Shown one piece after another: positions 5-81 of a stretch of 551 nucleotides of DNA. The notes under the pieces were generated by a model, which ran no database searches, was not told the origin of the DNA, and saw only the letters and a program-made list of their open reading frames with translations. The first letter of the stretch is position 1, and the number at the start of each line of letters is the position of its first letter. The position numbers and the translations under genes were made by a program. Origin of the DNA: Escherichia coli (GTDB lineage Bacteria; Pseudomonadota; Gammaproteobacteria; Enterobacterales; Enterobacteriaceae); the NCBI RefSeq assembly GCF_003334785.1, contig NZ_QOWV01000084.1, one strand, 5' to 3'.

Positions 5-40
5 GTAGGCCTGATAAGACGCGACAGCGTCGCATCAGGC
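5..40 (-). repeat. REP/PU, Z-type-like, copy 1
   Basis: Minus-strand read is GCCTGATGCGACGCTGTCGCGTCTTATCAGGCCTAC: two 14-nt arms complementary at 12 of 14 positions (mismatches at arm positions 8-9), a 4-nt loop and a CTAC tail. It matches the recalled E. coli Z-type PU consensus apart from about one loop base. Confidence 0.85.
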
Positions 41-47
41 ATTGATT

Positions 48-81
48 GCCGGATGCGGCACAAGTGCCTTATCCGGCCTAC
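48..81 (+). repeat. REP/PU, Y-type-like, copy 1
   Basis: Plus-strand GCCGGATGCGGCACAAGTGCCTTATCCGGCCTAC: 14-nt arms GCCGGATGCGGCAC and GTGCCTTATCCGGC complementary at 12 of 14 positions, followed by a CTAC tail. The arms match the recalled E. coli Y-type PU consensus; the loop region differs from that recalled consensus. Confidence 0.85.

Follow-up and report, generated by a model that had tools for sequence, protein, structure and literature searches.

Why do two neighbouring palindromes differ at several stem positions, with each still able to fold on itself, and share a single two-base mismatch in the middle of their stems? This question is raised by positions 5-81 of a 551-nt stretch of Escherichia coli DNA, the whole of which is called here the window. 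An earlier note, made from the letters of this stretch, had described the paired differences and the mismatch and had concluded that selection acts on a secondary structure in RNA or single-stranded DNA, and not on primary sequence, the stem being deliberately imperfect. Both features, that is, the compensated positions and the mismatch, are already documented and are an established property of E. coli REP/BIME elements. In effect, three REP types have been defined in this species, y, z1 and z2 (Ton-Hoang 2012, PMC3333891), and the legend of Fig. 1 in the same work describes a boxed two-base mismatch and marked bases that differ among REP types with complementarity kept. A literature search on palindromic units together with compensatory change gave indirect matches only. 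As a discovery, the observation therefore has little weight, being figure-legend knowledge, and a role in recognition by TnpA_REP is supported both structurally and biochemically. Its value is one of calibration, as a reader working without tools was able to conclude correctly, from 77 bases, that structure is under selection and that the mismatch has a purpose.

Organization and genomic setting of the array

The window (1-551) consists of six 92-nt units arranged head-to-tail as a direct-repeat family (TRF: period 92, 6.0 copies, 99% matches), and each of the six units is made up of one z2 and one y REP in opposite orientation. In the first unit, sequence parsing and folding place a z2-type REP on the + strand at 5-40. 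It begins with GTAG (5-8), which is followed on this strand by a 32-nt imperfect palindrome that reads GCCTGATAAGACGC, GACA and GCGTCGCATCAGGC. The lower stem is formed by 9-15 with 34-40, the upper stem by 18-22 with 27-31 and the loop by GACA at 23-26, while AA at 16-17 lies opposite GC at 32-33 as the mismatch. A 7-nt inner linker, ATTGATT (41-47), joins the non-GTAG ends of the two REPs and, on the - strand, leads into a TGCC|TGAT motif. The y-type REP then occupies 48-81 on the - strand, with its GTAG at 81-78 (CTAC at 78-81 on the + strand). Read on the + strand, it comprises GCCGGATGCGGCAC (48-61), AA, GTGCCTTATCCGGC (64-77) and CTAC (78-81), that is, a 30-nt imperfect palindrome plus CTAC. 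Its lower stem pairs 48-54 with 71-77, its upper stem pairs 57-60 with 65-68 around a loop at 61-64, and its mismatch is GC (55-56) opposite TT (69-70) on the + strand, which equals AA opposite GC on the - strand. A GGCC|TAC site (type II) is found at 75-81. Finally, the GTAG ends of adjacent units are joined by a 15-nt outer linker, AGGTCGGCAA[T/C]AGTT, which in the first case spans 82-96.

The same arrangement is repeated through the rest of the window. The second unit has its z2 REP at 97-132 (+) and its y REP at 140-173 (-), identical to 5-40 and 48-81, respectively. In the third to sixth units, the z2 REPs lie on the + strand at 189-224, 281-316, 373-408 and 465-500, and the y REPs on the - strand at 232-265, 324-357, 416-449 and 508-541. 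The sole variable base in the window is the T/C of the outer linker, at 92, 184, 276, 368 and 460, where it follows a strict T, C, T, C, T order. GTAG is directly 5′ of the stem throughout, and every unit carries GTAG, the AA/GC bulge, and the TGCC|TGAT and GGCC|TAC sites. The units are imperfect stem-loop palindromes of about 35 nt, extragenic and high in copy number, with GTAG and a mid-stem AA/GC bulge, and as such belong to the group 2 (enterobacterial) REPs, whose definition includes a pair of conserved mismatches giving rise to a mid-stem bulge (PMC8266576, PMC3333891). At the level of the array, y and z2 REPs of opposite orientation follow one another in turn, separated by short linkers of 7 and 15 nt and in tandem copies whose number differs among strains. 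This is the organization of a BIME-2, described as tandem y/z2 pairs with short linkers and a number that varies between strains (PMC3333891). The window itself is a piece cut from inside a longer array. A coding role was rejected: the 19 short ORFs are all artefacts that recur with the 92-nt period, and none is credible. No promoter-like site was found on either strand of the window, and a search of both strands for intrinsic (Rho-independent) terminators, in the form of a G+C-rich hairpin followed by a T run, gave 0 sites.

The best full-length genomic matches lie between rhaA and rhaD, with the + strand of the window corresponding to the sense strand of rhaBAD. DNA similar to the window is present in 5,213 of 5,426 complete E. 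coli genomes, at a median of 6 places per genome and 35,789 places in total. Within this set of 5,426 genomes there is no exact match to all 551 bases, and the best match in a single piece has 99.3% identity. At the rha locus, K-12 has 9 palindromic units, strain 219 has 17 and strain 100181 has 21, and the window holds at least 12. In K-12, this array has been named REP299a-i and placed inside the rhaBAD operon (mobilome preprint); a literature search on rhaA/rhaD together with REP gave no match. A match in TOP10 was set aside as a possible origin of the window, as it sits in a scrambled assembly end full of tRNA and Rhs fragments.

Pairing within the y and z2 hairpins

The arms that had been quoted for the two classes are exact in the window, the Z arms being the - strand reading of 9-40. 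Counted from the base of the stem, the Y pairs are GC, CG, CG, GC, GC, AT, TA, G.T, C.T, GC, GC, CG, AT and CG, and the Z pairs are GC, CG, CG, TA, GC, AT, TA, G.T, C.T, GC, AT, CG, GC and CG. Thus, as had been claimed for arm position 4 and for the loop-proximal bases, the differences between Y and Z are paired. They fall at positions 4, 11 and 13, all of them compensated so that Watson-Crick pairing is kept. The shared mismatch is likewise where it was described, as G.T and C.T at arm positions 8-9 of both classes. Only the 14th Y pair does not form, because a loop of 2 nt is impossible, and the predicted Y fold has 7 bp, the internal loop, 4 bp and the loop CAAG.

Folding of the first z2 unit gives 7 bp, a 2x2 internal loop and 5 bp, with energies of -20.5 kcal/mol as RNA and -12.8 kcal/mol as DNA (z-scores of -6.0 and -5.4). 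For the first y unit, the values are -20.0 (+ strand) and -18.2 kcal/mol (- strand) as RNA, and -10.3 and -11.4 kcal/mol as DNA. In general, single hairpins range from -18.2 to -21.4 kcal/mol as RNA and from -10.3 to -12.8 kcal/mol as DNA, with z-scores of -3.4 to -6.8 against shuffled sequences.

The three compensated positions are not equivalent. Positions 4 and 11 separate the y from the z2 class, while position 13 is a local sub-variant. At this position, A-T is private to the y copies of the rha locus, whereas canonical y has G-C, as does z2. In the K-12 sample, 57 copies have G-C and 3 have A-T, all 3 from the rha array, and within the sequence sampled from K-12 (310 kb) and Escherichia albertii (0.75 Mb) the y sub-variant of the window is confined to the rhaA-rhaD locus. 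The rha array of strain 100181 contains a stepwise series, read here on the sense strand, which begins with GCGC-GA-GCGC (G-C at position 13). The second state, found in two copies, is GCAC-GA-GCGC, where position 13 is an A.C mismatch; it is followed by GCAC-GA-GTGC (A-T) and by GCAC-AA-GTGC (A-T), which is the form found in the window. This series is a compensatory change caught along with its intermediate.

A hybrid unit was also observed in K-12, with T at arm position 4 of the 5′ arm and C in the 3′ arm.

Covariation among REP copies

The K-12 RefSeq feature tables list no REP features; consequently, copies were located by pattern and by an nhmmer profile. The sample consisted of 310 kb of E. 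coli K-12 and about 0.75 Mb of the sister species E. albertii, the latter taken from a cross-genus pattern scan. Among the matches listed in that scan, E. albertii was the sole enterobacterial species, the others being chance matches and two GTAG-REP families that are not related. For Salmonella, Klebsiella and other genera, conservation is taken from the literature only. The search pattern, GTAGGNCNGATN{10,22}ATCNGNC, imposes nothing at arm positions 2 and 4, at the mismatch or in the upper stem and loop, and it yielded 238 copies, of which 133 are distinct.

In these 238 copies, each of the four arm positions considered is largely Watson-Crick paired, at a level that 0 of 5000 permutations of the partners reached. 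Position 2 is paired in 92.9% of cases (CG, TA and GC), position 4 in 94.5% (GC 120, TA 96, CG 5 and AT 4), position 11 in 91.8% (GC 100, AT 66 and CG 47) and position 12 in 93.4% (CG and TA). A MAFFT alignment shows the same for the stem as a whole: 95.0% of stem cells are paired, against 83.8 +/- 0.5 in shuffles, and 165 cells are altered on both sides, against 55 in shuffles. All 7 variable stem pairs of this alignment have two-sided changes. Its covariation score is 0.259, compared with 0.088 in shuffles (0 of 500 reach the observed value) and with at most 0.085 when the partner is slid by 1-3 columns, so that pairing by chance is excluded by both the shuffled and the slid controls. In addition, RNAalifold recovers, without a supplied structure, the lower helix of 7 bp, the first pairs of the upper helix and, at the mismatch between them, a 2x2 internal loop. 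The covariation that the earlier note had proposed to look for among REP copies is thus present, as two-sided stem changes above all controls. Two limits apply to these figures, which in addition come from two sister species only. Five lower-stem pairs are fixed by the search pattern, and therefore their invariance in the alignment is uninformative. Moreover, the shuffle control overstates independence because REP copies are related by copying, and the counts are of sequences, not of events.

The limit set by the search pattern does not apply to a profile built from sequence only, with which nhmmer found 296 full-length copies (67 from the 310 kb of K-12 and 229 from the 0.75 Mb of E. albertii), including 65 degenerate ones that fail the strict pattern. 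Here, the lower-stem pairs are Watson-Crick in 93.6-100% of copies, and the five fixed by the pattern in 94.6-100%. With those pairs unfixed, a single sequence accounts for 95-100% of copies at five of the seven lower-stem pairs, and GTAG is aligned in full in 249 of the 296 copies. As to the level at which selection acts, single-sided variants of the T.G and C.A types are about equal in frequency (7 and 8 at position 2), and therefore wobble intermediates cannot separate RNA-level from DNA-level selection.

The conserved mismatch

The nature of the mismatch depends on the strand. On the GTAG strand, AA is opposite GC, giving an A.C that adjoins the lower stem and an A.G above it; on the complementary strand, GC is opposite TT, and in RNA a G.U wobble is possible at the outer pair. 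The description of the mismatch as one G-U wobble plus one mismatch is consequently correct for the strand complementary to GTAG and does not hold for the GTAG strand, where A.C and A.G leave no wobble.

In the pattern set, where the bulge bases were unconditioned, AA is present in 233 and GC in 222 of the 238 copies, and only 3.4% of bulge cells in the alignment could form a standard pair. A similar picture is obtained with the profile, as A.C is found in 284 and A.G in 283 of the 296 copies (64 and 61, respectively, among the 65 degenerate ones). The four mismatch columns are 97-99% conserved, on a level with the best stem columns, whereas the loop columns reach 42-91%; the commonest natural variant of the bulge is a C to T change at the outer 3′ base. 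The mismatch is thus conserved and not variable, being near-invariant in both copy sets while loop bases vary. This conservation has a cost in stability, both as DNA and as RNA: with the mismatch repaired, the hairpins would be more stable by 4.6-7.6 kcal/mol (DNA) and 4.3-8.9 kcal/mol (RNA). Since it is both conserved and costly, the mismatch is no accident, and the imperfection is maintained against thermodynamic stability. In this sense, the stem is rightly called deliberately imperfect.

Templated mutagenesis at quasi-palindromes is an established process in E. coli. Correlated arms could accordingly arise without selection on structure if intrastrand template switching during replication copied changes from one arm to the other, and the A.C intermediate of the rha series shows that single-sided changes do arise and are then resolved. 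Nevertheless, such correction would erase the AA/GC mismatch, which instead is among the most conserved positions. Single-sided variants are also rare, at only 5-10% of cells across the variable pairs, and the invariant GTAG and lower-stem sequence would be left unexplained. Templated correction is, for these reasons, a very unlikely source of the pattern.

Recognition of the hairpin by TnpA_REP

The reading that is best supported, to which we give a probability of about 80%, is that 5-81 is a BIME-2 unit in which recognition by a RAYT keeps the stem and the bulge, and which also has a role in RNA within rhaBAD. It has been shown in vitro that TnpA_REP binds single-stranded and not double-stranded REP, and only the hairpin of the GTAG strand (PMC3333891). 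Binding requires GTAG and the mismatch, and repair of the latter by GC>TT or AA>GC changes abolishes both binding and cleavage (PMC3333891). In vitro, the enzyme cuts at CT dinucleotides of the linkers and of the adjacent inverted REP, notably at TGCC|TGAT, which is its type I cleavage site, and at GGCC|TAC (PMC3333891). Binding or processing in vitro has been shown for consensus y, z1 and z2 (PMC8266576, PMC3479197, PMC3333891). In the co-crystal, base contacts include K82 with C27, the mismatched C, as well as R78 with T11 and R97 with G32 (Messing 2012, PMC3479197); binding is lost not only when the bulge is repaired but also when the stem is randomised with structure and bulge kept (PMC3479197). 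The conclusion of the earlier note must be divided accordingly. Structure is indeed kept by two-sided changes, while the addition that primary sequence is not under selection goes too far, since the majority of the stem bases, like those of the bulge, do not vary and some are contacted by the protein.

In the proposed mechanism, TnpA_REP (the RAYT) would read the single-stranded hairpin of the GTAG strand, needing both GTAG and the bulge. Copies that keep the hairpin-plus-bulge shape would then stay substrates for RAYT-dependent copying, recombination and array expansion, and the covariation of the stem and the conservation of the bulge would follow because such copies remain substrates. RAYT-dependent mobility of REPs has never been demonstrated in vivo, and one mobilome study saw no circular intermediates. 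The need for the bulge has been confirmed, with CST-SELEX finding only moderate selection on the identity of its bases (Corneloup 2021, PMC8266576). Recognition by TnpA_REP alone may not explain the conservation of the bulge in nature, since this moderate selection stands against an invariance of 96-99% in natural copies; that natural conservation is stricter than the published SELEX requirement could be of interest to REP specialists. A recent preprint (2026) states that variation among 697 palindromic units of K-12 is concentrated in bubbles and loops; a concentration in the bubble was not seen in the present sample from K-12 (310 kb) and E. albertii (0.75 Mb).

Correlated arms would also be expected of a double-stranded site with dyad symmetry that is bound by a dimeric protein and never needs to form a hairpin, as symmetric half-sites likewise give correlated changes, and links with BIMEs have been reported for gyrase, Pol I, IHF and HU (PMC2817692, PMC3333891). 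By contrast, the asymmetric mismatch and the one-sided GTAG break dyad symmetry, and a dimer that reads bases would not tolerate the range of Watson-Crick types seen, with all four at position 4 and three of them at position 11. As TnpA_REP also binds single-stranded and not double-stranded substrates, a site of this kind is the least probable of the explanations weighed here, and it can hardly be sustained.

A probable role at the RNA level

Recognition by a RAYT is only part of the favoured reading. The array lies inside the rhaBAD transcript, and therefore the same hairpins would also form in RNA. Among the Rfam families, naRNA4 (RF02564), which was built on REP325, is matched above its gathering threshold of 59.5 bits: 8-78 reaches 76.6 bits on the - strand, and this holds for all six units. 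The + strand, which is the sense strand of rhaBAD, scores 53.2 bits and so falls below it, and the other Rfam families in the window amount to sub-threshold miRNA and nhaA-II noise. A role of HU and naRNA4 in nucleoid compaction has been reported (Qian et al. 2015, PMC4550694), although this role of REP325 has been disputed (2026 preprint). In the latter work, REP325 stabilises the upstream mRNA and attenuates readthrough in a partly Rho-dependent manner. By analogy, the hairpins between rhaA and rhaD would most likely behave like REP325, as a barrier to 3′-exonucleases that protects rhaA mRNA from decay and as a partial attenuator for rhaD.

Perhaps, then, selection acts on RNA only, with hairpins that stabilise or attenuate transcripts and a mismatch that shortens the helix so that it escapes double-strand-specific RNases. 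The transcription of the array as part of rhaBAD, the effects of REP325 on upstream mRNA and readthrough, the strong prediction of hairpins in RNA for both strands and the limit of 8 bp that the mismatch sets on uninterrupted helices are all in line with this. However, GTAG and the AA/GC identity are kept even though only half of the units of each array are transcribed in a given orientation, and the RNA motif differs with the orientation, being a 2x2 loop in one case and a G.U pair plus a 1x1 loop in the other. If all that RNA required were bases left unpaired, their identity would not be held at 96-99% while loops drift. GTAG lies outside the hairpin, has no proposed role in RNA and is nevertheless whole in 249 of 296 copies, and a reader at the DNA level requires exactly these features according to the biochemistry. 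Selection at the RNA level alone is thus unlikely, less so than templated correction or a double-stranded site, and RAYT recognition combined with an RNA role in rhaBAD is preferred.

Why neighbouring units differ in class

The compensated differences have a further consequence when the two REPs of a unit are considered together. As neighbours are of different class, a unit pairs perfectly with itself and imperfectly with its neighbour. For the real z2-y unit, one long hairpin of the kind formed by a REPIN (-43.7 kcal/mol) and two local hairpins (-41.9 kcal/mol) are nearly equal with RNA parameters, and the long fold between units is interrupted exactly at the y/z2 differences. With the same parameters, a hypothetical z2-z2′ pair would give -79.5 kcal/mol for the long hairpin against -43.3 for two local ones, and a hypothetical y′-y pair -77.6 against -39.6 kcal/mol. 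Of 162 adjacent units in the wider sample, 155 have opposite orientations, and 151 of these 155 pair different classes, with y+z2 accounting for 95. None of the 155 adjacent inverted pairs differs at two or fewer stem positions, compared with 26% of random pairs. The class difference of adjacent inverted units fits a constraint against long perfect palindromes, which may also be of interest to REP specialists.

A tentative suggestion, which we consider possible but rather doubtful, is that the compensated y/z differences are selected as an anti-palindrome device, beyond marking two repeat lineages. Heterology between classes would stop a BIME from folding, in single-stranded DNA or RNA, into one long perfect hairpin or cruciform, a structure that would invite deletion or double-strand-specific nucleases and would hide the bulge from TnpA_REP. 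Nonetheless, the adjacency of classes may reflect descent and not selection, because BIMEs may spread as ready-made y+z pairs.

Comparison with known systems

The units of the window are closest to the E. coli y and z2 consensus sequences, types that go back to Gilson, Bachellier and Hofnung and were redefined in PMC3333891. Like these, they are extragenic and highly repeated, and they share GTAG, the lower stem GCC[G/T]GAT with ATC[C/A]GGC, the AA/GC mismatch, the upper stems GGCG (y) and GACGC (z2), and the same class-defining compensated positions. The y unit of the window departs from the y consensus at the fourth upper-stem pair, which is A-T and not G-C, and in its loop, CAAG (CTTG on the GTAG strand). 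As an array, the window resembles REP299a-i of K-12, which is also an inverted y/z2 tandem with short linkers, the same unit sequence, the same flanking genes and a strain-variable copy number; they differ in the number of palindromic units, which is at least 12 in the window and 9 in K-12.

REP325/naRNA4 is also built from a two-hairpin unit of y + z2, with six tandem units in both cases, and the Rfam consensus has the same internal loops. By contrast, its linker is 13 nt long and that of the window is 7 nt, the naRNA4-like strand of the window is antisense to rhaBAD, and a discrete RNA, of about 77 nt, and HU binding have been reported only for REP325.

Beyond the REPs of E. coli, the subterminal palindromes of the IS200/IS605 elements (IS608, ISDra2) are similarly hairpins of single-stranded DNA with a mismatched stem and a guide-like tetranucleotide on the 5′ side, and they are recognized in a strand-specific manner by an HUH/Y1 enzyme, as are REPs. 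Unlike them, REPs do not form the termini of a transposon with the enzyme gene inside it. TnpA_REP is single-copy, a CT dinucleotide is all that it requires to cleave, and within a BIME it can act on both strands. Finally, the group 3 REPs and REPINs of Pseudomonas and Stenotrophomonas are GTAG-tagged extragenic palindromes that form inverted doublets, are associated with RAYTs and show compensatory changes in their hairpins. These are, however, short and generally perfect palindromes that lack the mid-stem bulge which the units of the window have kept.

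Class and folding of neighbouring units

Neighbouring palindromic units of opposite orientation are hardly ever of the same class. Among the adjacent inverted pairs from loci of K-12 (L004-L010) and E. albertii (L046-L130), 151 of 155 combine different classes. None of the 155 pairs differs at two or fewer stem positions, compared with 26% of random pairs. In fold predictions, a same-class inverted pair would form a single perfect long hairpin, which would lie approximately 36-38 kcal/mol below the two local hairpins in energy.

Possible growth of the arrays

The window contains a sole polymorphic base, which reads T, C, T, C, T at positions 92, 184, 276, 368, and 460. 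This alternation therefore gives the array a higher-order period of 184 nt (two units), which suggests that it has grown by the duplication of two-unit blocks. The rhaA-rhaD array comprises 9 palindromic units in K-12 (L004:4273-4722), 17 in strain 219 (L003:2490-3320), and 21 in strain 100181 (L001:2940-3960). In strain 219, the y-type units, named by the 5′ arm of their upper stem on the rhaBAD sense strand, follow the order GCGC, three GCAC, GCGC, three GCAC, GCGC, which looks like the duplication of a K-12-like block of four units (368 nt).

A three-unit copy of the window's BIME is also present at the assembly end of E. coli TOP10 (NZ_CP080620.1, 4503037-4509312), within a mosaic of tRNA genes, RtT sRNA copies, and Rhs fragments. 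This patchwork has the appearance of an artefact of assembly and not of a true locus.

Stem variants, intermediates, and hybrids

Within the array of strain 100181, a stepwise series of y upper stems is found at L001:3400-3720: a G-C pair, an A.C mismatch in two copies, and an A-T pair with two different loops. The A.C copies are an intermediate of compensatory change that has been kept among tandem copies. The K-12 array, in turn, holds a hybrid unit (L004:4408-4441, plus strand), whose 5′ arm has a z-like T at arm position 4, opposite a y-like C in the 3′ arm; the unit thus carries a T.C mismatch at this position and is y-like elsewhere.

Further compensated variants, absent from the K-12 sample, occur in E. 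albertii (L100:4382-4409; L102:4588-4615 and 5873-5901; L069:1659-1692; L111:7228-7261). At arm position 2, the form is GGCGGAT...ATCCGCC. At arm position 4, the forms are GCCCGAT...ATCGGGC and GCCAGAT...ATCTGGC, and this position therefore shows all four Watson-Crick pair types.

Comparison with other repeats and published work

Two unrelated MAGs each carry a GTAG-tagged 30-nt REP family of their own: GTAG GGCGGAT GCCC GAA GGGC G ATCCGCC in the Pseudomonadota C21_maxbin.011 (L013-L024) and GTAG GGCGGAT TAGC GAA GC G TA ATCCGCC in the Deltaproteobacteria Dive100_bin1.40 (L054). The lower stem, GGCGGAT/ATCCGCC, is common to both, and a single unpaired mid-stem base is predicted in the 3′ arm of the former and the 5′ arm of the latter. 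A 31-nt pattern match in a Dorea MAG, identical even in its flanks on three contigs (L025:262-292, L026:189-219, and L027:1801-1831), probably stems from a gene that is repeated or from a mobile element, with no relation to REPs.

In natural copies, the bases of the bulge are 96-99% conserved, both in alignment A1 (REP copies from K-12 and E. albertii) and in the profile-found nhmmer set. By contrast, published SELEX with TnpA_REP found moderate selection on these bases (PMC8266576); conservation is thus stricter in natural copies. It also conflicts with a 2026 preprint, which locates the variation among REPs mainly in their bubbles and loops.
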